A stretch of DNA of 19,523 nucleotides from a virus (Duplodnaviria > Heunggongvirae > Uroviricota > Caudoviricetes): the IMG/VR virus record IMGVR_UViG_2740892229_000016; one strand, 5' to 3'. The notes below the pieces were generated by a model. It was not told the DNA's origin, ran no database searches, and worked only from the letters and a program-made list of their open reading frames with translations. This document shows, in pieces, positions 1,599 to 18,890 of the stretch (position 1 is the stretch's first letter; the number at the start of each line of letters is the position of its first letter). The position numbers were made by a program, and so were the translations under genes.

Positions 1599-2622
<1,024 letters not shown>

Positions 2623-2626
<4 letters not shown>

Positions 2627-2934
2627 AGATATTTATGATGAGGACGCTCGTGCTTATTGGCAGGATTTTCAATCTTAAAGGAGTACTGATGCTGCAGATA
2701 AGACTCAACTTTTTCTGACAATTTTTCTGCTACTTCCAGGAAGACTTGCCGGACGCTCCTTCTGGCTGCTGCCTCATAAAACTCCAGCGCAGCTCCTTCA
2801 ACACGGTCCATGGCGACATCCAGGTCAAAAATTTCACCGTCAAAGCGTTCTTTGTCCTGTAAGGCTACAGTTACCGTAACTTTATTCTCAAAATTACGGA
2901 CTCCTTTCACAACCAGTTCATAGTCTTGAGTCAT
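2623..2934 (-). CDS. ydfR: YdfR-like protein (DUF1327-type)
   Basis: 103 aa ORF between holin and endolysin; its stop overlaps the rrrQ start (ATGA). Confidence 0.7.
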
Positions 2935-2938
2935 TGGA

Positions 2939-3154
2939 TTACTCTCCTCTCGCAGCCTTACGCCTGTCTTCTTTAATCTTGAAATAAAGATTTGTCAGAT
3001 ACGTCAGCAGGCCAAAAACCAGGCTACCCAGCACACCGATTGCAGCCCACTGTGACGGAGTTACTTTATCGAGTAACTGCAATGCCCAGAAACCAGCATT
3101 ACCCGCCGATGTGCCATAGGCAACACCTGTTGTTAACTTATCCATTGATTTCAT
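2939..3154 (-). CDS. essQ: S21-type pinholin with dual start (MKSM...)
   Basis: 71 aa from the ATG at 3154: [26 protein letters not shown]...[15 protein letters not shown]. Two TM segments, dual-start Met1/Met4 motif, SD GGTGAGGA upstream. Confidence 0.85.
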
Positions 3155-3373
3155 ATCCTCACCCCGATGTACACGGATGGTGCAATATGTTTGAAAAGAT
3201 CGGAGTCTACGGGGTAGTTTTGACAGCACACGTTGTTCTCAACGGCGCTAAAAAAACATACACATTAAAAATGTGGGTAATTATTTTGAAAGAAAGTCAT
3301 ATATAAAATAATAATACGAGAAATGTTTTCATATTTAGTGTACTGTATACGGCCATTTATACAGGAAAAGCCT

Positions 3374-3544
3374 ATGTCAGAACGTAAAAACTCAAAATCA
3401 CGCCGTAATTATCTCGTTAAATGTTCCTGCCCAAACTGCACCCAAGAGTCAGAACACAGTTTTTCAAGAGTACAAAAAGGTGCCCTTTTGATCTGCCCTC
3501 ATTGCAACAAAGTATTCCAGACAAATCTTAAAGCTGTAGCCTGA
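3374..3544 (+). CDS. small zinc-ribbon protein (56 aa; CPNC...CPHC)
   Basis: MSERKNSKSRRNYLVKCSCPNCTQ...LICPHCNKVF with AGGAAA SD 6 nt upstream. Recalls small Qin zinc-ribbon proteins such as YnfU, but this is from memory only. Confidence 0.45.
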   Translation: MSERKNSKSRRNYLVKCSCPNCTQESEHSFSRVQKGALLICPHCNKVFQTNLKAVA

Positions 3545-3602
3545 TTGATTTTATTAGTAACAAGTATTTTTTATATTTTAATAATATATTTAAAGCAGAT
3601 AA

Positions 3603-3626
3603 TAAAAAACCCGCCTGAGCGGGTTT
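3603..3626 (-). terminator. Rho-independent terminator (hairpin ACCCGC-CTGA-GCGGGT, T-run on minus strand)
   Basis: GC-rich hairpin plus U-run about 280 nt downstream of the cspB stop on the minus strand. Confidence 0.5.
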
Positions 3627-3907
3627 GAGATTGTGGTGCTTTTTGTGGGAGTCATCCACTTACGCACTTTGTTTTGCCATGCCAGCAGTTAGCTTCTGCT
3701 GTAAAACTATTCATGCAGCAAACCTGCACTTCACCACAATGGTTAGCATACTTTTCCTGATTAAGATTTTGCCAAATATGCTAGCCATTGTTTCATGTAT
3801 TGGACCTCCTTACTTTTTATTAAAGAGATCCAATATTCACTACTCTGTCCGTATCTCTACTCAGGCATCAGCCTTCTTCGTTATCGTATACAGACGAGCG
3901 ATGAATT

Positions 3908-4123
3908 TTAATCAGTAATGATGACATTTGCTGCTGCAGGACCTTTAGCACCACTCTCTATAGAGAAGGTAACCTTTTGACCTTCAAATAAGGTTCGATA
4001 ATTATCATTCTGAATCGCAGAAAAATGCACAAACACATCTTTACTACCATCAACAGGAGAAATAAAGCCGAAACCTTTATCAGCGTTAAACCATTTTACT
4101 AAACCAGTCATTTTATTTGACAT
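3908..4123 (-). CDS. cspB: cold-shock protein CspB-like
   Basis: 71 aa [45 protein letters not shown]...; CspA family. Confidence 0.9.
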
Positions 4124-4423
4124 TCTACATTCCTTAACTTGAGCCTTTCGGCATAAATGGTTTGCATAACAGAAACGACTTCGTACTTAATTGGAGAGAC
4201 TCAAAGAAGGAATAAGTGAATAACACCTGAAATGAGAACTGCTTTAGTAAACTACTTCGTATATCGTCTGTTCTTCAAACCGACGCAATCATTAACGCAT
4301 AGTTGAACATATGAAGCAATGTTTATTTTAGACATCCAGCCATCTTCAACCCCATCAAAAAACTATAGCTTTCTTCAGGAACGTGTGTATAGTGCGCCAA
4401 GTTATCAGTATTAAGGAATTTTT

Positions 4424-4636
4424 TTGTCCCGTAAAATGACAGGAATTGTCAAAACCTTTGACGGCAAAAGCGGCAAGGGTCTTATCACCCCATCCGATGG
4501 TCGTATCGATGTCCAGCTTCATGTTTCAGCGCTCAATCTCCGCGATGCAGAAGAAATTACCACCGGATTACGCGTGGAATTTTGCCGGATAAATGGTCTG
4601 CGTGGCCCTTCAGCTGCCAATGTTTACCTTTCATGA
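4424..4636 (+). CDS. cspF: CspA-family paralog (CspF/CspH-like), TTG start
   Basis: 70 aa (M)[36 protein letters not shown]...; AAGGAA SD 5 nt before the TTG. Divergent from cspB. Confidence 0.8.
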
Positions 4637-4690
4637 GCTATATTAAAGCTTTAATTTCAGGCCCCATCGGATCACACATGGAGAGTTTTT

Positions 4691-4780
4691 ATGAATAACC
4701 CCGTCTGTCTTGATGACTGGTTGATTGGCTTTAAAAGCTTATGCTGTACTTTGGCCGTAATAGCTCTGCTAATAATATAA
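4691..4780 (+). CDS. candidate 29-aa hydrophobic small protein
   Basis: GGAGAG SD 5 nt before ATG; [29 protein letters not shown]. Sequence signal only. Confidence 0.25.
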
Positions 4781-4925
4781 TAAGCAGACTCATTGTGTTT
4801 AGGGACATTGTACTGGAAGAAAACATTTTAAACATCAGGCAAATAACCAAGTCACCAGCTAAATAATAAGTTAACAGACATGAGTCCCGGGATGAGATTC
4901 AACATTACCATTGCCCCATTTAAAG

Positions 4926-4962
4926 CACAAAACCCGCTCATCAGCGGGTTTTCTACTTTTTC
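4926..4962. terminator. bidirectional Rho-independent terminator
   Basis: AACCCGCT-CATC-AGCGGGTT hairpin with T-rich tracts on both strands; sits between the convergent cspF and quuQ. Confidence 0.5.
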
Positions 4963-5057
4963 TTAACGTCGGGTATACAAAGCCCATCGTTGAAAAAATT
5001 TTATCCATATTTTTTGAAAAATGCAAACATCATGTCGCCATCTTCAGCAAAAATCAT

Positions 5058-5810
5058 TTATCTCGTCACCTTCCTCAATTGCGCTTCCGCGTATGCTTCT
5101 TCCTGCCAGCACTTTGTTACCAGTTTACCAATGACGTCCGCATACCCCTTATACCACTGATAATCGGTCAGGTCTGGTACCAGCTTCTGGACATGACGTC
5201 GTGCCAGCGTGGTCGGTAAACGACTAAACCGGTTTCCATTACAACGCCCACAAATCTTATATACCGGTACGCCATGAAACCGGGTTCTTTTTTCATCCAG
5301 AACAATCCCTTTACCCTTACACCCTCTGCACGCTGTGCTGGCTTCGCCCTTACCATGGCAATGCTGACATAGTTCCTTCACCCATTCTTCCTTGATTACA
5401 GATTCCCCGCGTCTGTAGTGTTTCACCACTTCGCGCAATACATTATAAAATCCCGTACCTGAACAATGCTCACAGCGAGCCTTACTTGCCGCAGACCTGG
5501 AGTAATCAGCAAAGGCAAAACTCACGAGGTAAGGAATAATCTGTAACCGGATTTCTTCACTCAATTTGTTCAATGTCGGGTTATCCAGTGCCATCGCGTA
5601 ATTTAGCAGGCCTTCAATCGCAAACTGAGGGTCCTGAACACCAACTTTTGCCAGAAATAAGGCCAACCCAAGTGGTGCTTTCGACTGCACCATCCCCTGC
5701 GCTGCCATTACATCCGTAATTGTTAAACAACCGGTGCCTGTCGCTGGAGCGTCATCGCTCAATTTTGGAGATTTTGGGGAGTAATATTTTGGTAAGGCTT
5801 CAAGGTTCAT
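5058..5810 (-). CDS. quuQ: Q-family late-gene antiterminator
   Basis: 250 aa from the ATG at 5810 (GGAGAA SD). Cys-rich zinc-finger region (CEHCSGTG...CQHCHGKG...CRGCKGKG). Position upstream of the lysis genes. Confidence 0.85.
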   Translation of the reverse strand: MNLEALPKYYSPKSPKLSDDAPATGTGCLTITDVMAAQGMVQSKAPLGLALFLAKVGVQDPQFAIEGLLNYAMALDNPTLNKLSEEIRLQIIPYLVSFAFADYSRSAASKARCEHCSGTGFYNVLREVVKHYRRGESVIKEEWVKELCQHCHGKGEASTACRGCKGKGIVLDEKRTRFHGVPVYKICGRCNGNRFSRLPTTLARRHVQKLVPDLTDYQWYKGYADVIGKLVTKCWQEEAYAEAQLRKVTR

Positions 5811-5823
5811 GCTCGTTCTCCAC

Positions 5824-6873
5824 TTACGCCAGTACGCCAATTGCCAGCGCGCGATCGATAAAACGAAATATCAGCTCCAGTTGGGAGCCATACTTATCTT
5901 CAAATGCCACTGTATCCGTATGCAGCTCGTTGTGATGCTTTCTGCACAAAGGCAACACAAAGAGATCATGTGCTTTTGTTCCCATTCCGCCCTGCCCGTG
6001 ACCAATCAGATGATGCGGATCGTCGGCTGGCATACCGCAGCAAGCACACGGCTGTGTCTTAACCCAACGTGTGTATTTCTCCTTAACCCAGCGGCGACGT
6101 TTAGGCAGCTTCATGAAAGATTCCGGAGACTCTGGATCAACGGTGATGCTTACCACCGTCTTTTCCTGTGGTGATTTTTGTTGCTGGTGGGCGTAAGGCA
6201 ACGGTGCAAGATTTTTTGTGCGTTGTTTCAATATGCTGGTGGCGGTCTGCTCTCCCGGTACGATGTCGCTTTCGCGGTACACCGAGCAGATTTTTTCCGC
6301 TGGTAATCCCAGCGAACGACGCGATACAGCCTCAGGTAGTGCATCCACCACCTGATTGCAGACCGCCCACCAGGATAATTCAGCCAAAGATAATTCCCGC
6401 TCCTGCGTACCGCTTATTGCGTGACGGATGACGTCAATCACCCATGCTGTCAGATTTTGTTGAGCAAGCAGCTCCAGTGATTCCGATGTCTGGTCACGCA
6501 GTTGGTTGTCGCAGTGCCAGCACAACACCATTGCGCCGGTACCATAACGGTGAATGACTGTTTCAGTGTGATGGTAATCGCCATTAGGCCACTGGCAGGA
6601 TGTAACATGACGTAATAGCCAGTCGGACAATGCGCCAACGCCGCCAGCAGCACGAATCACCCGTTCGTTACTAAAAAACGGCAGCAATGTTTTGTCTTCC
6701 GCCAGCGGCTGGCGAACGGCAGGAACGACTCCGGATGGCAGATTACGCATGCTTTTTGGTTCCGGTTCCACCAGCACTCGAGGATTATGAAATATCTGTA
6801 TGGATTCACGGCCCGGCTTAAGGACCACCAGCCCAAGCTCAGGCACCAGAACAGGTCTAAGTAATACCCGCAC
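5824..6873 (-). CDS. ydfU: DUF968-family protein with C-terminal HNH-like Cys/His motif
   Basis: 349 aa from a GTG at 6873. C-terminus CACCGMPADDPHHLIGHG...CRKHHNELH. The frame stays open upstream to 6912. Confidence 0.7.
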   Translation of the reverse strand: MRVLLRPVLVPELGLVVLKPGRESIQIFHNPRVLVEPEPKSMRNLPSGVVPAVRQPLAEDKTLLPFFSNERVIRAAGGVGALSDWLLRHVTSCQWPNGDYHHTETVIHRYGTGAMVLCWHCDNQLRDQTSESLELLAQQNLTAWVIDVIRHAISGTQERELSLAELSWWAVCNQVVDALPEAVSRRSLGLPAEKICSVYRESDIVPGEQTATSILKQRTKNLAPLPYAHQQQKSPQEKTVVSITVDPESPESFMKLPKRRRWVKEKYTRWVKTQPCACCGMPADDPHHLIGHGQGGMGTKAHDLFVLPLCRKHHNELHTDTVAFEDKYGSQLELIFRFIDRALAIGVLA

Positions 6874-6874
6874 G

Positions 6875-7153
6875 TTACCTCCAGATCCGTTGCTGGAAAG
6901 TGCGGGACGCACGTGGTGGGCGTTCGGAATAAGGCAGCCTGACAGAGATTATCCAGTGCCGATAGTCGAGACTGAGAGCTTTCTTAACCTCGAACCCGCG
7001 CCTGCGGTAAGAATGAATCAGCCATTCGGCCTGTTCTGCAGTGCATGGAGGGTGCTGGAACCATTCAGACTTGAATGCGTGAGAATACCGCCCGTGCGTG
7101 CAGGCAAGAACGGGCGAATTATCAGAATTGTAATATTTTGCGTTGCGTGCCAT
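6875..7153 (-). CDS. 92-aa ORF abutting ydfU; possible N-terminal piece of a once-longer ydfU
   Basis: ATG with GGAGAA SD. Stop TAA lies 1 nt before the ydfU GTG, in a different frame. The last ~20 residues look like out-of-frame read. Confidence 0.4.
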   Translation of the reverse strand: MARNAKYYNSDNSPVLACTHGRYSHAFKSEWFQHPPCTAEQAEWLIHSYRRRGFEVKKALSLDYRHWIISVRLPYSERPPRASRTFQQRIWR

Positions 7154-7219
7154 CGGTTTTCTCCGGTGGCACGGTGTTACTCAGCGGGAGTTCAGCCCCG
7201 CGCAAGATTGTAGATGAGT

Positions 7220-7471
7220 TTATTCTCCTGAAAAAGCAGAAAAGCCAGCTTTTATTCCGATCTCTTTCAATGCCTGTAATGAAGTGACAAACTCACCTTC
7301 GCGCAAGATAAATCCGTCCGTGACCCGAGCATCCACAAAATTAATTAACGCAGCCCCATTCTTTCGCAAACACATAATGCGGTAATGACTAACAAGATTT
7401 CCATTTTCAACGCACACAGCATAGAGGCCATCTTCACAAAAAATTTTACGCAGTTCTTCGATGTTCATCAT
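7220..7471 (-). CDS. rem: Rem-like protein (83 aa)
   Basis: MMNIEELRKIFCEDGLYAVCVENG...; size and position (between ydfU and hokD) match Qin rem. Confidence 0.7.
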   Translation of the reverse strand: MMNIEELRKIFCEDGLYAVCVENGNLVSHYRIMCLRKNGAALINFVDARVTDGFILREGEFVTSLQALKEIGIKAGFSAFSGE

Positions 7472-7590
7472 CAGAATCCTTCCGGATAATTAGCTCTCCC
7501 CTTTAAGGGACCATCCCTCTTATCCCTGCGCGCTACTTAAGTATTTTTGATTCTATTCCGGCACCGTCCAGAACTTCAAACGCGTTGAAA

Positions 7591-7619
7591 ATAAAAACAA
7601 AAACCCGCCGAAGCGGGTT
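7591..7619 (-). terminator. Rho-independent terminator of the relB-relE-hokD operon
   Basis: AACCCGC-TTCG-GCGGGTT hairpin followed by TTTGTTTTTATTTT on the minus strand, about 70 nt past the hokD stop. Confidence 0.55.
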
Positions 7620-7687
7620 AAGTGCGGGTGCGTTGAGGATGCCTGCCACATCAGAGGTGGCGAGGGATTTCTCCCCCGCCGGGTCTC

Positions 7688-7843
7688 TTACTCCTCAGGT
7701 TCGTAAGCTGTGAAGACAGCGACCTCCGTCTGGCCGGTTCGGATTCGTACCTCGCAGAGGTCTTTCCTCGTTACCAGTGCCGTCACTATGACGGTTAAAC
7801 AGATGACGATCAGGGCGATTAACATCGCCTTTTGCTGCTTCAT
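7688..7843 (-). CDS. hokD: Hok-family type I toxin (51 aa)
   Basis: Hand translation MKQQKAMLIALIVICLTVIVTALVTRKDLCEVRIRTGQTEVAVFTAYEPEE. AGGAG SD. Not in the ORF track (<60 aa). Confidence 0.85.
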   Translation of the reverse strand: MKQQKAMLIALIVICLTVIVTALVTRKDLCEVRIRTGQTEVAVFTAYEPEE

Positions 7844-7914
7844 AGCCTGCTTCTCCTGTCAACGCAAAGCAGAAGTGTCACCTTCGGTGCGAAACAGAGA
7901 TGTCATGCTTTGGT

Positions 7915-8202
7915 TCAGAGAATGCGTTTGACCGCCTCGCTATATACTTCCGAGCGTTCTCTTTTCCCAACAGAAATCACGAAAACGACAACTTTCTCGT
8001 CTATAACCTGGTATACAAGGCGATAGCCTGAAGACCGGAGCTTAATCTTGTAACAATCAGGCATACCACGGAGCTTGTTTGCTTCAATCCGGGGTGACTC
8101 AAGTACTTCAACCAGCTTCTTTTTCAACTGTTCACGTACCGTCGAGCCCAGCTTTCGCCATTCCTTTAGTGCCCGCTCGTCAAAATCCAGAAAATACGCC
8201 AT
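7915..8202 (-). CDS. relE: RelE mRNA-interferase toxin
   Basis: 95 aa MAYFLDFDERALKEWRKLGSTVREQLKKKLVEVLESPRIEANKLRGMPDCYKIKLRSSGYRLVYQVIDE... Confidence 0.92.
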   Translation of the reverse strand: MAYFLDFDERALKEWRKLGSTVREQLKKKLVEVLESPRIEANKLRGMPDCYKIKLRSSGYRLVYQVIDEKVVVFVISVGKRERSEVYSEAVKRIL

Positions 8203-8441
8203 CAGAGTTCATCCAGCGTCACACGTACTGGCTTAGGATTACGAAGCCGTTCTTTCACTATCTCCACAAGTTCAGCATCTTCATCACTCAGGAGTGTCTG
8301 TTTGAACGGCAAGCGTTCATTGTCAGCGATATACTCGAGCATGAGACGAAGCGCTTCAGAAGGAGTTACACCCATTTTTTCAAGCGCGGCGTAAGAACGC
8401 GCTTTAAGTTCATCGTCAATACGCAGGTTAATGCTACCCAT
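8202..8441 (-). CDS. relB: RelB antitoxin
   Basis: 79 aa MGSINLRIDDELKARSYAALEKMGVTPSEALRLMLEYIADNERLPF...; its stop overlaps the relE ATG by 1 nt. Confidence 0.92.
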   Translation of the reverse strand: MGSINLRIDDELKARSYAALEKMGVTPSEALRLMLEYIADNERLPFKQTLLSDEDAELVEIVKERLRNPKPVRVTLDEL

Positions 8442-8444
8442 GTC

Positions 8445-8495
8445 TTACACCTCTTGTAATTACAAATGTCATTACAAGTATCGCACTACAACATG
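8445..8495 (-). promoter_or_regulatory. relBE promoter/operator region (relO-like inverted repeats)
   Basis: Nested palindromes CTTGTAATTACAA and TTGTAATGACATTTGTAATTACAAG immediately upstream of relB. Confidence 0.5.
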
Positions 8496-8771
8496 CTTAG
8501 GGCAAGTCACGAAGGAAGTCAGAAAGTAGTCGTAAGAACGGTGATCACTGTCCGCTTTGTGCCAGGAGCAGCCATTGCTAAGTCCATCCTGTATTGTGCA
8601 GGTCAGCTCGTTTTTAAAGAGTCCGGCCATCATCTTACTGGTACAGACACCATATACTTTGTGACGGTCAGGCTACATATGCACAACTCAACTTATTCAT
8701 CTATTTTTTGCTTTAGCATGTCAGTGTTGCTTTCTCGTCGGCGGGTGAGCGGTGACCTGACCTGTCGATAA
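8466..8771 (+). CDS. ydfV: YdfV-like ORF (101 aa)
   Basis: ORF length and position match my recollection of K-12 ydfV. It starts inside the relO region and has an odd composition, so a real product is doubtful. Confidence 0.3.
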   Translation: MSLQVSHYNMLRASHEGSQKVVVRTVITVRFVPGAAIAKSILYCAGQLVFKESGHHLTGTDTIYFVTVRLHMHNSTYSSIFCFSMSVLLSRRRVSGDLTCR

Positions 8772-8923
8772 AGGAACGTAACACGTTTTATGCAACACCC
8801 GCATGCGGCAGAAAATTATTGCCGAACGTTTACCCCTGTCAACAAGCTTTACTTTCTGAGGCGCGCCAGCCCGCGAGGAAAACAATCTGAACATCAAACA
8901 ATTAATGACACAAGAAATACGAT

Positions 8924-8950
8924 TAAAGATTTTTTTGTACATGCCGATAG
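8924..8950 (+). promoter_or_regulatory. sigma-28 (FliA) class promoter for flxA
   Basis: TAAAGATT-N11-GCCGATAG against consensus TAAAGTTT-N11-GCCGATAA, about 24 nt upstream of the flxA ATG. Confidence 0.6.
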
Positions 8951-8973
8951 TGCTTTTTTAAAAGGAGAAATCT

Positions 8974-9306
8974 ATGTCTGTCACAATTCAGGGAAATACC
9001 TCAACCGTTATTTCAAACAACTCCGCCCCGGAAGGAACATCAGAAATAGCCAAAATCACAAGACAAATTCAGGTGCTGACTGAAAAGCTTGGGAAAATCT
9101 CATCGGAAGAGGGGATGACGACACAGCAGAAAAAAGAAATGGCTGCATTGGTACAGAAGCAAATTGAAAGCCTCTGGGCTCAACTGGAGCAGTTGTTAAG
9201 GCAGCAGGCAGAGAAAAAGAATGAAGACGCGACAGTTCAGCCTGATAAAAAAGAAGAGAAAAAAGACGATACAAATACCGCTGGCACCATTGATATTTAC
9301 GTCTAA
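8974..9306 (+). CDS. flxA: FlxA (FliA-regulated protein)
   Basis: 110 aa MSVTIQGNTSTVISNNSAPEGTSEIAKITRQIQVLTEKLGKI...; strong SD AAAGGAGAAA. Confidence 0.85.
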   Translation: MSVTIQGNTSTVISNNSAPEGTSEIAKITRQIQVLTEKLGKISSEEGMTTQQKKEMAALVQKQIESLWAQLEQLLRQQAEKKNEDATVQPDKKEEKKDDTNTAGTIDIYV

Positions 9307-9320
9307 GTGACAGCCGTATT

Positions 9321-9344
9321 GTGGCCCTCATCGGGCCACTTTTC
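9321..9344 (+). terminator. Rho-independent terminator of flxA
   Basis: GTGGCCC-TCATC-GGGCCAC followed by TTTTC. Confidence 0.6.
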
Positions 9345-9699
9345 GCCATCAGCCTTTTCTTTAAAGACATATTATCTTTGTATCATTTCTGATAGTTAAC
9401 ATTACAAGATATAAGTAATGGACGCACTCCCAATTAGTCTATTTAAATCGCCACGAGTTTAACTGACAACCCATGATCAATTATGAATTGCAACTATTTC
9501 TGTAGTCACTTTTGTGGGGACAGTCCACAAAACTGCCAACTTCCGCTTCTTGCTCTTAGCGGACATTAGCATAGGCTATTTACCATAACGCCTCATTACG
9601 CACACCGCCCAGACTGACTCAGCGCGTTTCTGGCATATCCCCGGTAAAACAAGTAACAAACCACCCGAAAATGAACACCAGAAACGCGACTTAAGAATC

Positions 9700-11130
9700 T
9701 ACCCTATGAATGGATATGCACTCAACCGAATCGATCTTGGTTTCAATCTTTTTTATCGGGATCAGGCTTCTTTTTAGGTAACTTCGGGGGCTTAACTTGC
9801 TGATGACTTTGCGTTCGGCGCGTAAGCCAGGGATGGTCAGCTTTAGGTTTAACATAGTATTTTGAGCGTAAATCAATACGGGCATTATCCACTCGTTCAT
9901 GGACACTCTTTTCATCATCCAGTGGTATAGGCTCCGGGCCATCAACATACTTTTCCCAGCCCAGCGCTTTCCCGTCATACAGAACGTTAATTTCACCGTC
10001 AAAGTTCTCGCATACAGTAACAACCGAATGCCTAAGTCGATATCCCCGGCCCTCACTGCGTACCTGAAACGCACTGCTTTTGTACTGGAAAGTGAGATTT
10101 TTAGACAGAACGCGCTTCGCCTGTAGGCTGAAGATATAACCCAGTTCCTCTTCAGAATGGTGCACATCAAGATGAGCATTATCAGTAGTACGAGGCGACG
10201 TAGCGAACCGGTTGTTATAGGCTTCAATAAAGGTCGGCAACCATGCATTTGCTGTTTCAATATCACTGATATTCTGAAGCCGCATTTCTTTGACCAGCCT
10301 GTCCTGTAGTGTCTGATTGGCGCGCTCTACCCGCCCTTTTGCCTGCGGGCTGTTGGCATGGATTGGCTCGATGCCCAGTGTCTTTATCGCACGAGTGAAC
10401 TGGGTCAGCTCACCTTCCCGCTCTGGGTTATTTACCCTGAATATACTGTGTCTATCAGAGTAGAGAGCGAGCGGTACGCCATGATCATTAAGGTAACCCC
10501 GGAGGGTTTCCATGTAAGCCCGGGTTGTTTCAGCAGGCACAAAACGCAACGCCATCAACGCACTGGTGGCATCATCAATGAAAACGATCAGTGTACATCT
10601 GGGGCCTCGATTTTCAAACCAGTCATGAGGTGAGCCATCAATCTGGATCAGTTCACCGTAAGATGGTCGTCGCATGCGGCGTTGATATATACGGGCAATT
10701 TTACGACGGCGTTCACGCCATAACCCCTCTTCTATCACCCACTTTCTGAGAGTTTCAACGGATAAAGATAAACCGTGTATCTCGCGCAATTTTTCGCACG
10801 CAAACGTAGGTCCAAAATCAGCGTAACGGCCTTTGAGGAGTGAAATTACTGTTGCTCTGAATTCAGTAGAAAAGGAATTATTAGGACGCTTTCCACGTCG
10901 GTGGGAAACCAGACCAGAAGGCCCTTCATTTCTATACCGTTGCACCAGACGTTTAACCTGCCGAATAGAAATGCCAATGCGTGCCGCAGCTTGTTCCTGA
11001 ATAATCTGAAGTCGGTGGAGTTCCTTATGACTCATCGTAACAGTCTCTTTGATCATGAAAAATCCCCCAGAGAATTGTCTGGGGACATTTTAGAATGGTT
11101 CAAAGGGGACATTACAGCTTGGTGTTAACA
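9700..11130 (-). mobile_element. insertion sequence carrying a single-ORF DDE transposase (IS481-like architecture); ends not resolved
   Basis: Transposase ORF with no phage context, in a position where K-12 Qin has no such gene. I could not find convincing terminal inverted repeats, so the boundaries are approximate. Confidence 0.5.
9743..11056 (-). CDS. DDE transposase (N-terminal HTH plus rve integrase core)
   Basis: 437 aa. HTH segment GISIRQVKRLVQRY; D/D/E candidates in IQIDGSPHDW, LYSDRHSIF and GRVERANQTLQ. Alternative ATG at 11035 (MSHKEL...). Confidence 0.8.
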   Translation of the reverse strand: MIKETVTMSHKELHRLQIIQEQAAARIGISIRQVKRLVQRYRNEGPSGLVSHRRGKRPNNSFSTEFRATVISLLKGRYADFGPTFACEKLREIHGLSLSVETLRKWVIEEGLWRERRRKIARIYQRRMRRPSYGELIQIDGSPHDWFENRGPRCTLIVFIDDATSALMALRFVPAETTRAYMETLRGYLNDHGVPLALYSDRHSIFRVNNPEREGELTQFTRAIKTLGIEPIHANSPQAKGRVERANQTLQDRLVKEMRLQNISDIETANAWLPTFIEAYNNRFATSPRTTDNAHLDVHHSEEELGYIFSLQAKRVLSKNLTFQYKSSAFQVRSEGRGYRLRHSVVTVCENFDGEINVLYDGKALGWEKYVDGPEPIPLDDEKSVHERVDNARIDLRSKYYVKPKADHPWLTRRTQSHQQVKPPKLPKKKPDPDKKD

Positions 11131-11390
11131 ATAGCCTGCTTCTCCGTGCCTTTCGGCACGTAAGAGGCTAACCTACATGTGTCTAGCATGAAATTGGCCT
11201 CAGATTAATGTTAAGCGTCTTGCAGGACGCGTAATGTTAACTGGGGCTTTTCTCTATCTGCCGTTGGTGTCCATGCCCGAGGCAGATAGCCTCAAGCACC
11301 CGCAGTCATTCTACTTAACTAAGATTTCCCCGCAAACCGTTTTTGTCCAGCACAGTAAATATCCAACTAAACCAATGGAGTTCGCTGTAT

Positions 11391-11570
11391 TTACCGCCAG
11401 TATTCAATGCACATGACCGCCATGAACACCCCTAAAAAAAGGGCATTTATATATCCAAATATTAATATCAAAACATCAACTTTTTCCATATACCTTGCTG
11501 TGAAGATGATGGGCATACATGATGCGAACAACCAGAACGCAACAAACAAAAACTGCAATGCGTTTTTCAT
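11391..11570 (-). CDS. small hydrophobic membrane protein (59 aa)
   Basis: Strong SD AGGAGGAATA before the ATG at 11570; MKNALQFLFVAFWLFASCMPIIFTARYMEKVDVLILIFGYINALFLGVFMAVMCIEYWR has two predicted TM helices. Confidence 0.4.
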   Translation of the reverse strand: MKNALQFLFVAFWLFASCMPIIFTARYMEKVDVLILIFGYINALFLGVFMAVMCIEYWR

Positions 11571-11824
11571 TATTCCTCCTACAATCAATGTGCAATTACA
11601 TTTAAACACACCTCAATTTGGCCGGACATATAAATATCTAAACCAGAAAAAATCACTTACATAGCGTTACAAACTCTTTAGTCTAAAGGTTCATCGTAAA
11701 ACATTCCCCATACTTATCAGTCCGTTCCGCGCCAGGTAGCTCATTGCCTTATCTGGCAACCTGTAATCAGGTTTCCGCTTTTTCAGTTGGCTGGTCGTTT
11801 AACCGACATAGTTAATCCATTAAT

Positions 11825-12112
11825 CTAGTTGCCGGATGTTGGTGGATTTTCGCGTTTTAGTTGTTCATAAAAGTGCACAGCTTTAACCAGTTCTTCTGAT
11901 GTAACTGGGACTGGTGAGGCAGTGAATAAGGCCTGAATTTGATAGTTCGGCCTGTCGTTACAATCCTCTTTTTTCGGTACATATTTCCAGTCACCAGACC
12001 ACTACTTCCCCTGAAAGTCCGTAACGCCTTTTTTCACGTAGCGATATCGCCATGCCACTGGTTTTGCTTGCCCCGCCGTTTCATGCCCTTCCTGATAATT
12101 AATCTCGCTCAT
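11825..12112 (-). pseudogene. about 95-codon ORF interrupted by an in-frame TAG (amber) after codon 36
   Basis: MSEINYQEGHETAGQAKPVAWRYRYVKKGVTDFQGK-TAG-WSGDWKYVPKKEDCNDRPNYQIQALFTASPVPVTSEELVKAVHFYEQLKRENPPTSGN. The 58 codons after the TAG are open but contain no start codon. Confidence 0.35.
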
Positions 12113-12722
12113 TCATCGCCCCACTCATCACAATATGCTTCGACCGGAGTTTTTCCCGCTTCATAGTCATCACGCTAGGATTCGACATCAGCAGCACTTC
12201 CACCGCGTAACTCACCATAGTCCATTAATAGTTCATCCCGCTCTTCAAAACTGATGTTATATTTAGCTGAACAAAAATCAGCCACTTTGTTCTTCCTCAT
12301 CGTCTTTTATTTCGTGGTATGAGTAATTGCAGTAGTTAAAGAAAATTTCTTATGCTCCGTCATGAATTTCCTCAGGTGTTGCGTCATCGTCCACTTCGAA
12401 TACATCCTCAAAATCTCCACCAGCTATTCCCGTTTCAATAATAATTTTGAACTTTCGCATTTCACTACCGCCCTTTCGGGCGGCCTCCTGATGTTCTGAG
12501 GGTGCAGAAATCCATCCGGTTAAGGATTAAATTTTATTTACAGAACTGAATTTAATTATTCAGATATACGTATCTGTAGCCTTACGAATCTACTCACTGG
12601 ATGCCTCTTTCATAAAAATAATCCAGTGGGTTTTATCGTTTTTTCCCTGTTCGTTGACAGATAACAGGTTTTCTGTCTGTCAGTGCCAGAATCTGGCTTA
12701 CCGGTATTTGCGTTTCATTCCA

Positions 12723-13079
12723 TTAAAAAATCAGAACGCCGTGCGGCCTCAACACCCGAAAGGCTTCTTTAAATCTCTGTCGCGAATCATCACGCCAGGC
12801 ATCTTTATTCAGCCGTCCATATTTCTTTCCCATCCAGGCGTTATCACCAACACTCTCAAGATGCGGAGGGTCTAATACAACCATCGAAAAAGATGCGTCT
12901 GCAAATGATAATGCACGAAAATCTGCGATAATGTCAGGGCTGATAATCAAGCGTCTCCCATTGCGTAATGTGTATCCTTCTTTTCTGATATCGCTGAATA
13001 TCGCCCGTTCGTCAGACTTATCGAACCAGAACATGCGGCTGCCACAGCACATATCAAGAATGGTTGCCGGTGCACTCAC
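12723..13079 (-). CDS. methyltransferase-like fragment (motif I-like DMCCGSR and motif IV-like DPPH), probably truncated
   Basis: 118 aa; GTG start overlaps the upstream stop (GTGA). Too short for a complete DNA methyltransferase. 33 further codons stay open in-frame after the TAA. Confidence 0.4.
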   Translation of the reverse strand: MSAPATILDMCCGSRMFWFDKSDERAIFSDIRKEGYTLRNGRRLIISPDIIADFRALSFADASFSMVVLDPPHLESVGDNAWMGKKYGRLNKDAWRDDSRQRFKEAFRVLRPHGVLIF

Positions 13080-13498
13080 TGCGCCACGTCCTGAAAATTA
13101 CCCTGATAGAAAGCCAGTATGCGCTGCATAACTTCGCTCTTCCGGCACTCGCGACAGATTATGTTTAGGCGACTGTCGTAGCGACGTATTTCTCCGTCAG
13201 GTGATGACCAGATAAGGTCCGGATCAACCACAGCAGGTTTCTTCACCTTTGCCCTCGAGAGTTTTTTGCGGGCGTTTTGCCAGTCCTTACGCGCCTGTTC
13301 AGACGGGAATAACCCGTAACCAGAGCTGTATACATCGCCACTGGCAACCAGCTCTCTGGCCAGAACGCTCATCAGATATCTTGTTGCCCCAGTTTTAGCT
13401 TCCAGTTGTCGTAACGTCTCGCGCCCACTCTGGCGTACGAGTTCCACCACCTGCCCTTTAATTTTTTCCCGCTCTTCTTGTGTAAAAACTTTTGCCAC
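13076..13498 (-). CDS. hypothetical protein with winged-helix-like segment (140 aa)
   Basis: GTG start with strong SD AGGAGG. Segment RQLEAKTGATRYLMSVLARELVASG looks wHTH-like. Translationally coupled to the downstream methyltransferase-like ORF. Confidence 0.55.
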   Translation of the reverse strand: MAKVFTQEEREKIKGQVVELVRQSGRETLRQLEAKTGATRYLMSVLARELVASGDVYSSGYGLFPSEQARKDWQNARKKLSRAKVKKPAVVDPDLIWSSPDGEIRRYDSRLNIICRECRKSEVMQRILAFYQGNFQDVAQ

Positions 13499-13538
13499 AA
13501 GTCCTCCTGAACATTACTTTATGCCCTAAAATCAACAC

Positions 13539-14504
13539 TTATCCCCTGAAACCAGGCGGAATTTCTGTATCCGGTTCAGAAATATGATTCACACAACGCT
13601 GTACAGGTGAACGTCCCAGGCGGATGACCAGTTCGTCCCATTTTTCGCGGAGTTTTGACGGGCTCATGATGTTTTTTACCCAGAATTGATCTCGCTGTAC
13701 CCGACCAAACATTTCGCAAATTTGTCTGTGGCTTCTGCCATCCAGCATCCGCATTGTGCGCACGTCATTGGCCCAGGCTGTCCAGTTAGGCTCTTTTGGT
13801 CGCATGATCTCTCCATCGTCGCTGGCAGCCTGTTCGTAAAGGTTCACGATCCGCCCCCAAATCCACTGCGCACACGCCAAATCCTCCCTGCTACCCCACT
13901 GGCGTTTTTTCGCACTAAACACAACCGCGTCGGGGTTCCGGGTTAAAAAATCCTGTTCAGCGGTCTGCGGGTCCGGTTGCGAAGCTTCCGGACGAAAAGT
14001 GTTTTTATTCTCTGTAGTAATCTCTGTTGTATTCTCTGTAAGATCATCAGGCCATTTTGACCCGATGACATTGGGTCGTTTTGAACCAATGGAGCGTTTC
14101 ATTTTGACCTCTTCCATCGTGTCATTTTGACCTGATGGAGCGGCGCATTTTAAACCGATGGATTCGCTCAATTTGTCACCATCTAAAAGCTCGCTCCCGT
14201 AGTTGATCGTGTAGAAATTGGTCATATCGCGCTTTGATTTATTGAGCTTTTCACAACGCAAAAGCCCCAGCGTTTTCAGACTTGCAAACGCGCGCTTTAA
14301 CGTTGACTCTGACCAGAATGGGAACTGTTCCAGCCATTGTTCCGTTGTGTTGTAAATCCAGCGAACACCATCACATTCCATGCCGGAATTGGTATCTCTC
14401 AACCAGTAATGCAACTGCTGCAACACAATGGCTTCATTTAAGCCAATCTTCATCGCAAGCTGTGTGTTTATAACCAGTGGGCGTTCAGCAAAAAGAAGGC
14501 TCAT
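13539..14504 (-). CDS. phage replication initiator (O-like replisome organizer)
   Basis: 321 aa from the ATG at 14504 (the track ORF begins at a TTG at 14558). N-terminal DnaD/replisome-organizer-like segment; the coding sequence contains a direct-repeat iteron array, as in lambda O/ori. Confidence 0.7.
   Translation of the reverse strand: MSLLFAERPLVINTQLAMKIGLNEAIVLQQLHYWLRDTNSGMECDGVRWIYNTTEQWLEQFPFWSESTLKRAFASLKTLGLLRCEKLNKSKRDMTNFYTINYGSELLDGDKLSESIGLKCAAPSGQNDTMEEVKMKRSIGSKRPNVIGSKWPDDLTENTTEITTENKNTFRPEASQPDPQTAEQDFLTRNPDAVVFSAKKRQWGSREDLACAQWIWGRIVNLYEQAASDDGEIMRPKEPNWTAWANDVRTMRMLDGRSHRQICEMFGRVQRDQFWVKNIMSPSKLREKWDELVIRLGRSPVQRCVNHISEPDTEIPPGFRG
14053..14163. repeat. iteron array (5 direct repeats, about 23 bp period), candidate prophage origin
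   Basis: Five copies of CATTTTGACC-(N)-GATGGAG-like units starting at 14053, 14077, 14100, 14123 and 14146. Adjacent TCTCTGT x3 at 14009-14039. Confidence 0.55.
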
Positions 14505-15006
14505 AATTCCATCCAGCTTTTTGTTGGTATTGCTGTCGATACGCAAGTTTGAAAGCAATTGCTTTTTCTATAAGTTCGTCAGTTTCACGATCCACTACGG
14601 CAGGATCAGCAAAAAGCAGTCCGGACTCCACCACATCGCCATATTCTTTGTTTAACCCGGCGATCATGTACGTGATGCTTTTTCCGTCACTAATTTCACG
14701 ATACAACCTGAAATCATTAATCCGAATAGCCTCCATAATTGCAGGCACTAGCGCCGTGAACTTTTCACGCTTATCCCTGGTGTCGATAGCCTTCCAGCGT
14801 TCGAATATCTTCACTCGATTAACGCCAAGCGCTCGCTGATCAACCGCGCCACCTTCATCTGTGACACGCTGAACATCGATGTTCGGGCGCTCTTTCAAAG
14901 CCCAGAATGCTTCAGTGATTAATATCGTCGCCTGCTCCTGTGTCATTCCTGGTCGACATATCCAGGCATCCAGAGCCTCACGAGCCTGTTCAGGAGTGAT
15001 TTTCAT
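14485..15006 (-). CDS. hypothetical early-region protein (173 aa), cII/YdaT position
   Basis: First gene downstream of the cro-like dicC on the same strand; overlaps the O-like start by about 20 nt. Family assignment by position only. Confidence 0.55.
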   Translation of the reverse strand: MKITPEQAREALDAWICRPGMTQEQATILITEAFWALKERPNIDVQRVTDEGGAVDQRALGVNRVKIFERWKAIDTRDKREKFTALVPAIMEAIRINDFRLYREISDGKSITYMIAGLNKEYGDVVESGLLFADPAVVDRETDELIEKAIAFKLAYRQQYQQKAGWNYEPSFC

Positions 15007-15217
15007 TGTTCAACCGCCCCGCCCGCTTCGTCTTACGATATTCGTCATAAACCTTGGGATCATACAGAAGCTCGCCGCCAGATGCCTCCTGTAGACGCAT
15101 CGCGCGACCTTCAGGAACCAGCTCTTGCCATTGAGAAACAGCAGATGGGTCAACGCCAGCAGCTTTCGCTACTTTGGCTTTCGTACCGTAAAAATTAATT
15201 ACGTCTGATTTAAACAT
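14990..15217 (-). CDS. dicC: Cro-like repressor DicC homolog (75 aa from internal ATG)
   Basis: MFKSDVINFYGTKAKVAKAAGVDPSAVSQWQELVPEGRAMRL...; HTH; strong SD GGAGGTG. Divergent from dicA. Confidence 0.7.
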   Translation of the reverse strand: MFKSDVINFYGTKAKVAKAAGVDPSAVSQWQELVPEGRAMRLQEASGGELLYDPKVYDEYRKTKRAGRLNNENHS

Positions 15218-15230
15218 CGCACCTCCAATA

Positions 15231-15244
15231 TTGAGTTTTCTCAA
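15231..15244. promoter_or_regulatory. candidate DicA operator in the dicC/dicA divergent promoter region
   Basis: TTGAGTTTTCTCAA; the same 13-mer recurs at the dicB-operon promoter. Confidence 0.4.
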
Positions 15245-15294
15245 TGCTAATCACTCAAGGAATCTCAAGTCAAGGGTTATTAAGATATCTAAAT

Positions 15295-15702
15295 ATGAAC
15301 GAGAAAACTTTAGGTCAACGCATTAGAGAAAGACGTAAGCAGGTAGGCTTAAGTCAAAACGGTTTAAGCAAAGCTGCTGGCGTATCTGGCTCATCAATTT
15401 CATTATGGGAAAGTGACCATACAGCCCCGCGCGGGCAAAATTTGCATCGCCTCGCCGAGGTATTGCAATGTTCACCAACCTGGATACTGTTTGGCGACGA
15501 GGACAAAACACCAGCTCCCCCTGTTTCACTCGATAGTGCCTTAGACTTATCGGAAGATGAGTTAGAGATGCTGCGTTTGTATCGCGCACTTCCTAAATCA
15601 GAGCAACAAGCACAACTCAGCGAACTCCGCGCCCGCGTTGAGAATTTTAATCGCCTGTTCACCGAGCTATTAGAGGCTCGCAAACGCAACAAGCATCAAT
15701 AA
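15295..15702 (+). CDS. dicA: cI-like HTH_XRE repressor DicA homolog (135 aa)
   Basis: MNEKTLGQRIRERRKQVGLSQNGLSKAAGVSGSSISLWESDHTAPRGQNL...; the C-terminal half looks like a dimerization domain. An alternative leaderless ATG is at 15244. Confidence 0.75.
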   Translation: MNEKTLGQRIRERRKQVGLSQNGLSKAAGVSGSSISLWESDHTAPRGQNLHRLAEVLQCSPTWILFGDEDKTPAPPVSLDSALDLSEDELEMLRLYRALPKSEQQAQLSELRARVENFNRLFTELLEARKRNKHQ

Positions 15703-15766
15703 TCATCCCTTCACAAAATTTTAAAGCCTTACATTTCAATGTATTGGCTTTATCTTGCGCCAATAC

Positions 15767-15818
15767 TTGAGTTTTCTCACCAAAAAACCTTGACGAAAAA
15801 TAATGAGAAAACTAAATT
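15767..15818 (+). promoter_or_regulatory. dicB-operon promoter (TTGACG-N17-TAAATT) flanked by inverted operator copies
   Basis: -35 at 15790-15795, -10 at 15813-15818. TTGAGTTTTCTCA at 15767-15779 and its inverted partner TGAGAAAACT at 15804-15813. Confidence 0.5.
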
Positions 15819-17297: not shown

Positions 17298-17522
17298 TTT
17301 ATTCACAGGTGAGGTAGAGTGCGTGCGCCGGACACGGATAAGAATCCGGCACTGACAGTTTACTGAAAAGGATATATCCCTGAAAAGTCAGGGCATAACN
17401 NNNNNNNNNAGCTAAGGTTGGTAATTAAGGAGTTCTCCACGGGTGAGGTGGAGTGCGTGCGCCGGACATGGGTGAGCATCCGGCACTGACAGTTTACTGA
17501 AAGGATATTTCCATGAAAAGTC

Positions 17523-17990
17523 AGACCATAACGCGAAAGCGCACGGCGAGGTAGCTGGTTCATAGATAGCCTGTCGTTAAATTTTCGTCGACCGTGCGCT
17601 TCCGGTTGTGGCACTCCGCGAAATGGCGCGGCGGTAAGTATGGCGGGGTTATTCCTTCCCCGTTGAGGACACCGNNNNNNNNNNACGAAAGCGCCCGGCG
17701 AAGTTAGTCTCTCTGTATAGGTCGTCGTTAAATTTAATTCGATCGTGCGCTTCCGGTTGTGGCAATCCGCGAAATGGCGCGGCGGTAAGTATGGCGGGGT
17801 TATNNNNNNNNNNGCGAAAGCGCACGGCGAAGTTCGTCTCTCTGTAGGTAGTCGTTAAATTTAATTCGACCGTGCGCTTCCGGTTGTGGCAATCCGCGAA
17901 ATGGCGCGGCGGTAAGTATGGCGGGGTTATTCCTTCCCCGTTGAGGACACCGGGTTGTCAGGTTGACCATACGCTTAAGTGACAACCCCG
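17523..17990 (+). repeat. three consecutive variant copies of the structured element upstream of dicF, separated by 10-N gaps
   Basis: Copies at about 17523-17674, 17685-17803 and 17814-17990 share GCGCACGG...CCGTGCGC and GGGTTGTCA...TGACAACCC hairpins. Only the last is contiguous with dicF. Confidence 0.5.
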
Positions 17991-18013
17991 CTGCAACGCC
18001 CTCTGTTATCAAT

Positions 18014-18071
18014 TTTCTGGTGACGTTTGGCGGTATCAGTTTTACTCCGTGACTGCTCTGCCGCCCTTTTT
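18014..18071 (+). ncRNA. dicF: DicF small RNA (cell-division inhibitor sRNA)
   Basis: TTTCTGGTGACGTTTGGCGGTATCAGTTTTACTCCGTGACTGCTCTGCCGCCCTTTTT matches my recollection of DicF, including its 3' terminator hairpin. Lies just upstream of dicB. Confidence 0.85.
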
Positions 18072-18240
18072 AAAGTGAATTTTGTGATGCGGTGAATGCG
18101 GCTGAGCGCACGCGGAACAGTTAAAACCAAAAACAGTGTTATGGGTGGATTCTCTGTATCCGGCGTTAATTGTTAACTGGTTAACGTCACCTGGAGGCAC
18201 CAGGCACTGCATCACAAAATTCATTGTTGAGGACGCGATA

Positions 18241-18429
18241 ATGGAAACGTTATTACCAAACGTTAATACGTCTGAAGGTTGTTTTGAAATTGGTGTCACT
18301 ATCAGTAACCCAGTATTTACTGAAGATGCCATTAACAAGAGAAAACAAGAACGGGAGCTATTAAATAAAATATGCATTGTTTCAATGCTGGCTCGTTTAC
18401 GTCTGATGCCAAAAGGATGTGCACAATGA
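18241..18429 (+). CDS. dicB: DicB cell-division inhibitor (62 aa)
   Basis: METLLPNVNTSEGCFEIGVTISNPVFTEDAINKRKQERELLNKICIVSMLARLRLMPKGCAQ; GAGGA SD. Confidence 0.9.
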   Translation: METLLPNVNTSEGCFEIGVTISNPVFTEDAINKRKQERELLNKICIVSMLARLRLMPKGCAQ

Positions 18430-18503
18430 ATTCAGCATTTGTGCTTGTTCTGACAGTTTTTCTTGTTTCCGGAGAGCCAGTTGATATTGCAGTCAGTGTT
18501 CAC
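18426..18503 (+). CDS. ydfD: YdfD-like, copy 1 (5' part, truncated by an N-gap)
   Basis: MNSAFVLVLTVFLVSGEPVDIAVSVH...; its ATG overlaps the dicB stop (ATGA). Confidence 0.6.
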
Positions 18504-18513
18504 NNNNNNNNNN

Positions 18514-18627
18514 TGTATTTACTGAAGATGCCATTAACAAGAGAAAACACGAACGGGAGCTATTAAATAAAATATGCATTCTTTCAATGCTGGCCCGTTT
18601 ACGTCCGATACAAAAAGGATGCTGGCA
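18514..18627 (+). other. diverged second copy of the dicB 3' half
   Basis: Encodes ...VFTEDAINKRKHERELLNKICILSMLARLRPIQKGCWQ, with several substitutions relative to the 18241-18429 copy. Begins directly after an N-gap. Confidence 0.5.
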
Positions 18628-18890
18628 ATGAATACAGCATTTGCACTTGTTCTGACAGTTTTTCTTGTTTCCGGAGAGCCAGTTGATATTGCAGTCAGTG
18701 TTCACAGGACAATGCAGGAGTGTGTGACTGCAGCAACCGAACAGAAAATTCCCGGTAACNNNNNNNNNNCGTTCACAGGACAATGCAGGAGTGTGTGACT
18801 GCAGCAACCGAACAGAAAATTCCCGGTAACTGTTACCCGGTCGATAAAGTTATTCACCAGGATAATATCGAAATCCCGGCAGGTCTTTAA
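18628..18890 (+). CDS. ydfD: YdfD-like, copy 2; coordinates inflated by an N-gap and a duplicated 60-nt overlap
   Basis: MNTAFALVLTVFLVSGEPVDIAVSVHRTMQECVTAATEQKIPGN-[gap]-CYPVDKVIHQDNIEIPAGL. Removing the gap and the repeated 60 nt gives a 63-aa ORF. Confidence 0.6.

Follow-up and report, generated by a model that had tools for sequence, protein, structure and literature searches.

The O-like initiator gene and its repeats

The window analysed here is a 19,523-nucleotide stretch of Caudoviricetes DNA (IMG/VR record IMGVR_UViG_2740892229_000016), whose positions 12700-15800 are 100% identical to Escherichia coli 2013C-4991 (NZ_CP027355). The prophage adjoins rspB, where Qin is integrated in K-12, and has dicB, relBE, hokD, flxA, cspB/F/I and nohA in common with Qin. 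After a divergent repressor gene the minus strand encodes, in this order, a Cro-like protein, a YdaT/CII-like regulator, an O-like replication initiator, a DUF977/LygF protein and a truncated methyltransferase. The gene for the O-like protein (13539-14504, minus strand, 321 amino acids (aa)), annotated 'phage O protein family' in NZ_CP027355, contains an array of direct repeats within its coding sequence. We consider it probable (roughly 80%) that 14004-14183 is the replication origin of this lambdoid Qin-type prophage, embedded in its own initiator gene, and that helicase delivery is host-dependent.

A preliminary description of this DNA had noticed five repeats with a 23-24 bp period in the O-like gene and a TCTCTGT x3 tract beside them. 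The repeats were recovered by a repeat search and a period-23 scan, and the tract proved to be a 12-bp tandem repeat at 14006-14041 (Tandem Repeats Finder (TRF) and repeat search). Repeat search and core scan placed five 23-nt units, spaced by 23/23/23/24 bp: iteron 1 (14138-14160, core GGTTTAAAATG, reading frame 1), iteron 2 (14115-14137, CATCAGGTCAAAATGACACGATG, frame 0), iteron 3 (14092-14114, core GGTCAAAATG, frame 2), iteron 4 (14069-14091, CATTGGTTCAAAACGACCCAATG, frame 1) and iteron 5 (14045-14067, CATCGGGTCAAAATGGCCTGATG, frame 1). Iterons 2, 4 and 5 are imperfect 10-3-10 palindromes with the consensus CATCGGGTCA-AAA-TGACCCGATG, each with 8/10 dyad symmetry. The exact 10-mer core GGTCAAAATG (minus strand) has three copies in the 19.5-kb window, all of them within the array, where two further copies differ from it by two mismatches. 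Five same-strand cores within 110 bp were obtained in none of 300 first-order Markov simulations (simulated maximum three), and a motif-free scan of the whole window for self-matches at period 23 peaked at the array (57/92 matches, z=6.9). A sixth, degenerate unit, iteron 0 (14161-14183, coding strand GATGGTGACAAATTGAGCGAATC), aligns with good copies in diverged homologs; such copies (GAGGTCAAAGTGA) are present in mEp460_4F5, Klebsiella, Citrobacter and one further homolog.

In the direction of transcription the iterons are immediately followed by three 12-mers (14004-14041, TRF period 12; coding strand ACAGAGAATACA, ACAGAGATTACT and ACAGAGAATAAA), which are A/T-rich and purine-skewed and form the predicted unwinding region. 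The tract coincides with a local AT maximum of 70% (14000-14039) and, in an alignment, lies where ori-lambda has its A-rich tract. One GATC (Dam site) lies between iteron 5 and the 12-mers (14042-14045) and is kept in 6/8 homologs. No DnaA boxes or IHF sites were found near the origin (searched 13400-14700), and a DnaA-assisted mechanism is therefore without sequence support.

The O-like protein itself is divided into four parts in an AlphaFold model. A confidently modelled winged-helix N-terminal domain (aa 1-105; 14190-14504, minus strand), predicted to bind the iterons, is followed by a disordered linker (aa 111-177), a helical C-terminal domain (aa 179-297; 13614-13970, minus strand; predicted local distance difference test score 77-96) and a flexible tail. 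The repeat array occupies codons 115-167 and thus fills the disordered linker. BLASTP aligns aa 147-294 with aa 135-270 of lambda O (34% identity over 148 aa, E 3e-28), so that the helical domain is homologous to the lambda O C-domain, and phrog_391 ('replication initiation O-like') matches aa 17-321 with E 3.9e-93. The matching families phrog_391, phrog_277 and phrog_9773 are all 'O-like'. A profile hidden Markov model check for a replication domain had been proposed in the preliminary description. The full-length PHROGs match and the homology to the lambda O C-domain support such a domain, and Pfam and NCBIfam do not, as no Pfam match was found for an initiator domain in the 321-aa protein even at E 10 and no useful match in NCBIfam. 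This negative counts against the origin reading. Lambda O matches PF04492 (Phage_rep_O) at 5.7e-36, and only its N-terminal part has a Pfam model. Since the lambda O C-domain itself has none, the silence of Pfam is uninformative.

As an origin, the element is of the ordinary lambda ori-in-O kind, in a loader-less form. In ori-lambda, too, directly oriented iterons, each with dyad symmetry, fall in the part of gene O that encodes the interdomain linker and are followed by an A-rich coding-strand tract; they lie at O codons ~117-144, compared with 115-153 in the window gene. The two modules also have in common the order cI / cro / cII-like / O / ren-like, a homologous C-domain and an exchangeable unit of iterons and N-domain. 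Lambda differs in having four iterons of ~18 bp, whereas the iterons here abut each other, measure 23 bp and number five or six, and the A/T tract here is made of three 12-mers at exact period. Furthermore, lambda has a Phage_rep_O N-domain, a P gene and the tail NTDWIYGVDL, whereas the window module lacks P and has a DnaT-like tail. The RepA_N initiators of iteron plasmids (pSK41/pTZ2162 RepA) have no detectable sequence similarity to the O-like protein, and the C-terminal domains differ.

Constraint on the DNA and exchange with the N-domain

A codon alignment was made of six sequences with 50-72% protein identity, taken from the window, from mEp460_4F5, from one phage of Klebsiella and one prophage of Citrobacter, and from two metagenomic contigs. 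Synonymous-codon identity ranges from 0.29 to 0.65 in the two folded domains. It climbs to 0.67-0.84 in the iterons, the part with the lowest amino-acid identity (0.40-0.52), and to 0.95-1.00 over the last iteron and the 12-mers. High synonymous identity combined with low amino-acid identity is characteristic of a cis-acting DNA element that overlies a tolerant protein linker. In a DNA alignment the block TTACAGAGAATACAACAGAGATTACTACAGAGA is near-invariant in all eight sequences. The 12-mer tract is likewise near-invariant at the DNA level in eight homologs down to 50% protein identity, with a synonymous-codon identity of 1.00.

The preliminary description had itself raised the alternative of ordinary coding repeats; they would then belong to a low-complexity linker and have no function as DNA. 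The 12-mers are indeed in frame (TENT/TEIT/TENK), and the TE-rich linker is kept in the protein alignment. The cores of the iterons, however, are spread over three reading frames and a peptide repeat is therefore not possible. Moreover, the minimum of amino-acid identity coincides with the maximum of synonymous-codon identity, and the ACA and GAG codons are fixed in 8/8 homologs. The three frames and the synonymous constraint contradict the coding explanation, which we regard as scarcely credible.

Co-variation between the iterons and the protein was followed in IMG/VR with a search that used the C-domain alignment. This search returned mostly near-identical relatives, and the sample consisted of 80 loci with C-domains at least 93% identical to that of the window protein. 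The same N-domain as in the window protein is encoded at 53/80 loci, and all of these that were inspected have three exact GGTCAAAATG cores together with ACAGAGA x3; in genes with this N-domain the GGTCAAAATG cores recur at a 23-bp period. Another 25/80 loci encode an N-domain of the HTH_36 type and carry TTGACCCGTCAA repeats at a 15-bp period, with neither the GGTCAAAATG nor the ACAGAGA motif. Phage SfIV shows this second pattern. The recombination joint between the two types lies just past the origin. The N-domain and the iterons are thus swapped together under a near-identical C-domain, from which it follows that the DNA-binding domain and its iterons form one specificity unit. Such a unit of initiator and iterons has long been established for lambda, 434, phi80 and phage 82.

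The same exchange bears on the possibility that the repeats are operator-like sites, serving autorepression by O, handcuffing or the binding of YdaT or Cro, and not a replication start. Plasmid iterons also serve copy-number control and dyad symmetry is typical of operators. The sites, however, lie 340-460 nt inside the gene, away from the promoter, and they switch with the N-domain of the initiator and not with the type of cro, cI or ydaT (SfIV and Citrobacter contexts). In addition, the iterons are followed by a conserved A/T-rich tract in the same place as in ori-lambda, and an operator function in place of an origin seems very improbable to us. The comparison with lambda ori within O, made at the outset from the repeats, is supported by the anatomy, the conservation of the DNA, the co-variation of N-domain and iterons and the homology to the lambda O C-domain.

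Helicase delivery and the DnaT-like tail

The preliminary description had seen no P- or DnaC-like helicase loader and had left the module as either incomplete or host-dependent. The absence was borne out by tblastn: neither the window nor 37 kb of the same prophage from strain 2013C-4991 nor the complete genome of phage PhiR42_1 yielded a match (E>0.1) to lambda P, to three further P proteins, to DnaC, to Rac YdaV or to DnaB. The second alternative is favoured, as an intact O module without a loader is found in deposited phage genomes, including that of PhiR42_1. Since the phage has no P, DnaC-like or DnaB-like protein, the helicase would have to be delivered by host proteins.

The module belongs to the loader-less 'O-only' class of lambdoid modules. 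Weigel and Seitz reportedly described 'initiator-solo' modules in 2006. According to a recent survey, 34/314 lambdoid phages of Enterobacteriales encode an O homolog and neither a helicase nor a loader, none of this class has been studied and its replication 'is not yet understood' (2025, Genome Research, PMC12315714). Members of the class (phage LLS, mEp460_4F5, SfII/SfIV) have, like the window, a single O homolog and lack a helicase or loader elsewhere in the phage genome, and the O protein of mEp460_4F5 is 68% identical to that of the window and has the same iterons and 12-mers. We found no published description of the origin anatomy or of the DnaT-like tail for this class, the available portion of PMC12315714 included.

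In the order of events that we propose, transcription from a pR-like promoter would read cro, ydaT and O. Dimers of the O-like protein would attach by their winged-helix N-domains to the 23-bp dyad iterons, of which there are five or six, and the resulting nucleoprotein complex would destabilise the adjacent, strongly conserved A/T-rich tract of three 12-mers. Host proteins would then deliver the replicative helicase. Recruitment of the host DnaB-DnaC complex would fall to the final ~20 residues of the initiator, which in relatives with a phage DnaC homolog (YdaV) would recruit that homolog. For the window prophage we infer that the origin is active, that the N-domain binds the iterons, that the 12-mers are unwound and which partner the tail binds.

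The tail in question (aa 301-321, VQRCVNHISEPDTEIPPGFRG; 13542-13604, minus strand) was recognised from its identity to residues 160-179 of E. coli DnaT. In the alignment of QRCVNHISEPDTEIPPGFRG with this segment 14/20 residues are identical and 18/20 similar (70% and 90%), and both lie at the C-terminal end of their protein. The extreme C-terminus gives the only PDB and NCBIfam signal of the O-like protein, although the NCBIfam DnaT score is 16 bits against a cut-off of 201. The O-like protein has the DnaT-type form ...SEPDxxIPPGFRG-COOH. In DnaT the tail lies outside the Pfam DNA-binding domain (PF17948, residues 89-154), and the two proteins differ in that DnaT has its own N-terminal oligomerisation domain and the PF17948 three-helix bundle, to neither of which was any similarity found in the O-like protein. 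The name 'Primosomal protein I' that RAST gives to phage proteins is therefore due to the tail alone.

Many family members with differing N-domains keep the motif [D/Y]xxIPxGFRG. For 154 GFRG-tailed O genes the flank available was 1.2 kb or more. P is downstream of none of them, a gene of the DnaC family (YdaV) is downstream of 21, and 133 have no loader. The 21 YdaV genes are 79-96% identical to Rac YdaV and, in all but one case, start 7 nt past the O stop codon. Of 85 O genes with other tails, 83 have P downstream, one a DnaC-family gene and one no loader; the 83 are mostly lambda clones and represent ~4 independent lineages, and as the IMG/VR matches are mostly near-identical, the contrast in P between the tail types rests on few independent lineages. 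More distant relatives, with C-domains 57-64% identical, have a W-rich tail (lambda with NTDWIYGVDL and two others) or another tail (one), and in each of them a Phage_lambda_P gene is the next one.

A scan of IMG/VR with a back-translated pattern for D..IP.GFRG*, in which the first 120 stretches were taken, extended the set of carriers. Among the matches listed, at least 107 viral open reading frames (ORFs) of at least 100 aa end with the tail, they fall into at least 11 N-terminal and at least six pre-tail clusters, and where there is enough flank the next gene is of the DnaC family in ~55% and P in none. Single-linkage clustering had merged these ORFs into one mosaic cluster and was replaced by separate clustering of N-terminal and pre-tail parts. 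Carriers of the tail include the O-like protein, Rac YdaU and at least nine other classes of N-domain. At least four further initiator-like bodies carry it, for example those of a 356-aa protein beginning 'MANAWLRLWHDMPNDPKWRT...' and of proteins of 271-315 aa beginning 'MAGDWIKMR...', whose bodies also resemble the DnaT body. Rac YdaU (DUF1376) ends in ...VNTVSLPDSAIPPGFRG (PDSAIPPGFRG) and precedes the DnaC-like YdaV, and in the host dnaT is followed by dnaC after a gap of 2 nt. The YdaU-YdaV region of Rac (region of oriJ) has the same layout of repressor / YdaS-Cro / YdaT / initiator and the same tail as the window. Rac differs in that the body of YdaU is unrelated and that it has its own DnaC-family loader, which is absent from the window module. 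The likeness to DnaT also includes gene order, as in many relatives of the window gene the tail-bearing gene lies immediately upstream of a DnaC-family gene.

From these sequence comparisons we tentatively propose, at a little under even odds, that the tail of the O-like protein is a docking peptide that would recruit DnaC-DnaB. Somewhat more cautiously, the tail common to DnaT and to unrelated phage initiators could be a portable docking peptide for loader-helicase complexes of the DnaC family. Several points weigh against these proposals. The neighbourhood counts come from mosaic, non-independent contigs. In DnaT the C-terminal domain sits on PriA, and it is the N-terminal domain that has been proposed for the recruitment of DnaB/DnaC (PMC13377028). 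Residues 154-179 of DnaT contribute only modestly to cooperative binding of single-stranded DNA (PMC4132743), and beyond this we found no role described in the literature for residues 160-179. Finally, the partner of DopC, which is O-like and has a DnaT_C motif, is a P-like protein (PMC5509034).

The main rival to docking on DnaC is docking on PriA/PriB, by which the origin would be as described and the initiator would replace DnaT in a PriA-type preprimosome at the opened origin. The C-terminal domain of DnaT binds the HD2/CTD of PriA via a conserved hydrophobic interface and its linker binds PriB (PMC13377028), and the tail is hydrophobic (IPPGF). However, the same study does not name residues 160-179 as interface. 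Neither the pairing of the tail with DnaC-family genes and never with P, nor the adjacency of dnaT and dnaC, is predicted by such a preprimosome, and we hold it to be possible, though rather unlikely.

In the literature, DopC/DopE (Brezellec et al. 2017, PMC5509034) is the one previous connection of O-like proteins with DnaT that we found, and our searches gave no earlier mention of the tail in phage O or YdaU proteins. DopC likewise is an O-like helix-turn-helix protein and is reported to have the C-terminal motif of DnaT (PDB 2ru8). It differs in being chromosomal and domesticated, with no iterons and no O C-domain and with a P-like partner, whereas the window O has iterons and the C-domain and no P.

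This locus is lifted above the routine by its mimicry of the DnaT tail and by the exclusive pairing of that tail either with a loader of the DnaC type or with none. The route by which DnaB/DnaC reaches the DnaT-containing preprimosome 'remains unknown' (2026, Nature Communications, PMC13377028). This question and that of the replication of O-only phages, as posed in PMC12315714, meet in one peptide of 20 residues. If the tail is indeed a portable docking element, O-only lambdoid phages would mimic DnaT to capture the host DnaB-DnaC at their origin, and the tail would be the long-sought element that hands DnaB-DnaC from DnaT to the restart primosome. The host pair dnaT-dnaC would then share the phage layout of a tail-bearing gene followed by a DnaC-family gene and may derive from such a pair.

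Phage relatives, the Qin deletion and neighbouring features

The O-like protein is 99.4% identical to that of mEp460_ev081, 98.1% to that of PhiR42_1 and 97.5% to that of HannyBb, and iterons 2-5 and the 12-mers are identical in mEp460_ev081 and PhiR42_1. PhiR42_1 is a complete Qin-like genome of 48.7 kb that extends from int to the side tail fibres with a full structural module, also has flxA, relBE and the transposase, and shows that full-length, apparently active phages of the Qin type exist. SfIV, which has the same family of C-domain and tail (a GFRG-tailed O), has no loader within the 6.8 kb around O that were examined and is ultraviolet-inducible and plaque-forming (PMC3851460). The O module therefore looks functional and host-dependent.

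Some points weigh against an active origin in the window. Iteron 0 is degenerate, and iteron 1 has T where PhiR42_1 has C. The N-domain is not Phage_rep_O (PF04492) and is of a different winged-helix class, and both origin activity and iteron binding in this O-like family are predictions from sequence. We infer the viability of PhiR42_1, HannyBb and mEp460_ev081 from their deposition as phage genomes, that of PhiR42_1 with a named host, as no publication was found on plaque formation by any of them. Lastly, the prophage has insertion sequence (IS) elements (IS3) and pseudogenes, and may therefore be defective for other reasons.

The last point, together with the truncated methyltransferase, also fits an origin and initiator that are intact in sequence and dead in practice. 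The arrangement O-LygF would then be a deletion derivative of O-YdaV-YdaW-LygF, unable to fire for want of its DnaC-type loader, and a decaying remnant. YdaV is found 7 nt after O in 21/154 close relatives, some of them with the same N-domain, and Rac has YdaU-YdaV-YdaW. The loader-less layout is, however, that of the majority (133/154), and it is found in PhiR42_1, mEp460_ev081, HannyBb and the plaque-forming SfIV. The O ORF is intact, synonymous sites of the origin are strongly constrained, and 549/5426 complete E. coli genomes (~10%) keep at least 80% of 12700-15800. We therefore think it unlikely that the module is a dead remnant and retain the reading of a host-dependent origin.

The whole immunity-replication block differs between mEp460_ev081 (LR597641) and mEp460_4F5 (LR595868). 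In the former this block is of the Qin type (dicB, DicA-like repressor, O, LygF) and matches the window with 98% identity, as though recombination had brought it in from a Qin-type prophage.

According to the preliminary description, the interval from cro to Q is deleted in K-12 Qin. This was right in substance, although the extent was overstated: K-12 (MG1655) matches the window from 2569 to 9927 and resumes at 14727, so that only 9928-14726 (4.8 kb) is missing. The missing segment holds most of a DDE transposase gene, the sok RNA, pseudogenes, the methyltransferase and DUF977 genes, the entire O gene with the origin and the 3' part of the YdaT-like gene. At the ends of the deletion K-12 retains ydfW (DDE transposase) and ydfX (5' part of the YdaT-like gene). 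In the window the transposase is an intact ORF of 437 aa (9743-11056, minus strand; HTH_32 and rve_3), which the annotation pipeline PGAP splits into 'ydfW' and a partial ISNCY transposase. The K-12 deletion begins 35 nt inside this ORF (9927/9928) and ydfW is its 3' remnant, which points to a deletion next to the transposase by which ydfW and ydfX were joined. Loss of the origin segment explains the inability of K-12 Qin to replicate.

Upstream of O, the cI/DicA-like repressor gene (15295-15702, plus strand; Pfam HTH_3, E 2e-15, and annotation) is divergent from the Cro-like gene of the DicC type (14990-15217, minus strand; Pfam P22_Cro, E 4.5e-16, and annotation). A candidate pR-like promoter (15244-15273, minus strand), identified by its match to the consensus (TTGACT-18-TAGCAT, 9/12 positions), would drive cro, ydaT and O, through the origin. 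The YdaT/CII-like regulator gene (14485-15006, minus strand; Pfam YdaT_toxin, E 1.2e-5; phrog_163 'CII-like transcriptional activator', E 2e-40) overlaps the O-like gene by 20 nt (14485-14504). This overlap, like the YdaV start 7 nt past the O stop in relatives that have YdaV, would fit translational coupling of the genes in the operon.

Immediately after O, where lambda has ren, comes the DUF977/LygF/Ren-like gene (13076-13498, minus strand; Pfam DUF977, E 3.5e-29; phrog_142 'Ren-like exclusion protein', E 1.7e-46), whose last 20 aa are 50% identical to lambda Ren. It was considered as a hidden helicase loader and rejected, being Ren-like, small, of winged helix-turn-helix type and inconsistently linked to the O family. 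The truncated methyltransferase gene (12723-13079, minus strand) encodes 118 aa that span positions 52-165 of a 229-residue PHROG profile, and PhiR42_1 carries the same truncated form.

Other features lie further from the module. The segment that K-12 Qin lacks encodes a sok antitoxin RNA (Rfam, 104 bits; 11130-11301, minus strand), which represents a second hok/sok-type locus beside hokD. As expected for Qin, a DicF small RNA is encoded at 18015-18066 (plus strand) and two cspA-type thermoregulator leaders lie upstream of cspI and cspB (997-1382 and 3892-4284, both minus strand). Between 16187 and 19274 there are nine runs of exactly 10 N each, and the pieces that flank them correspond to parts of K-12 Qin that overlap and are partly duplicated; three of them (17410-17674, 17724-17803 and 17851-18503) correspond to ~9057-9872 of the K-12 Qin locus. 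This zone has the look of masking or scaffolding and not of real sequence, and a 202-bp 'tandem repeat' at 18313-18705 falls within it.

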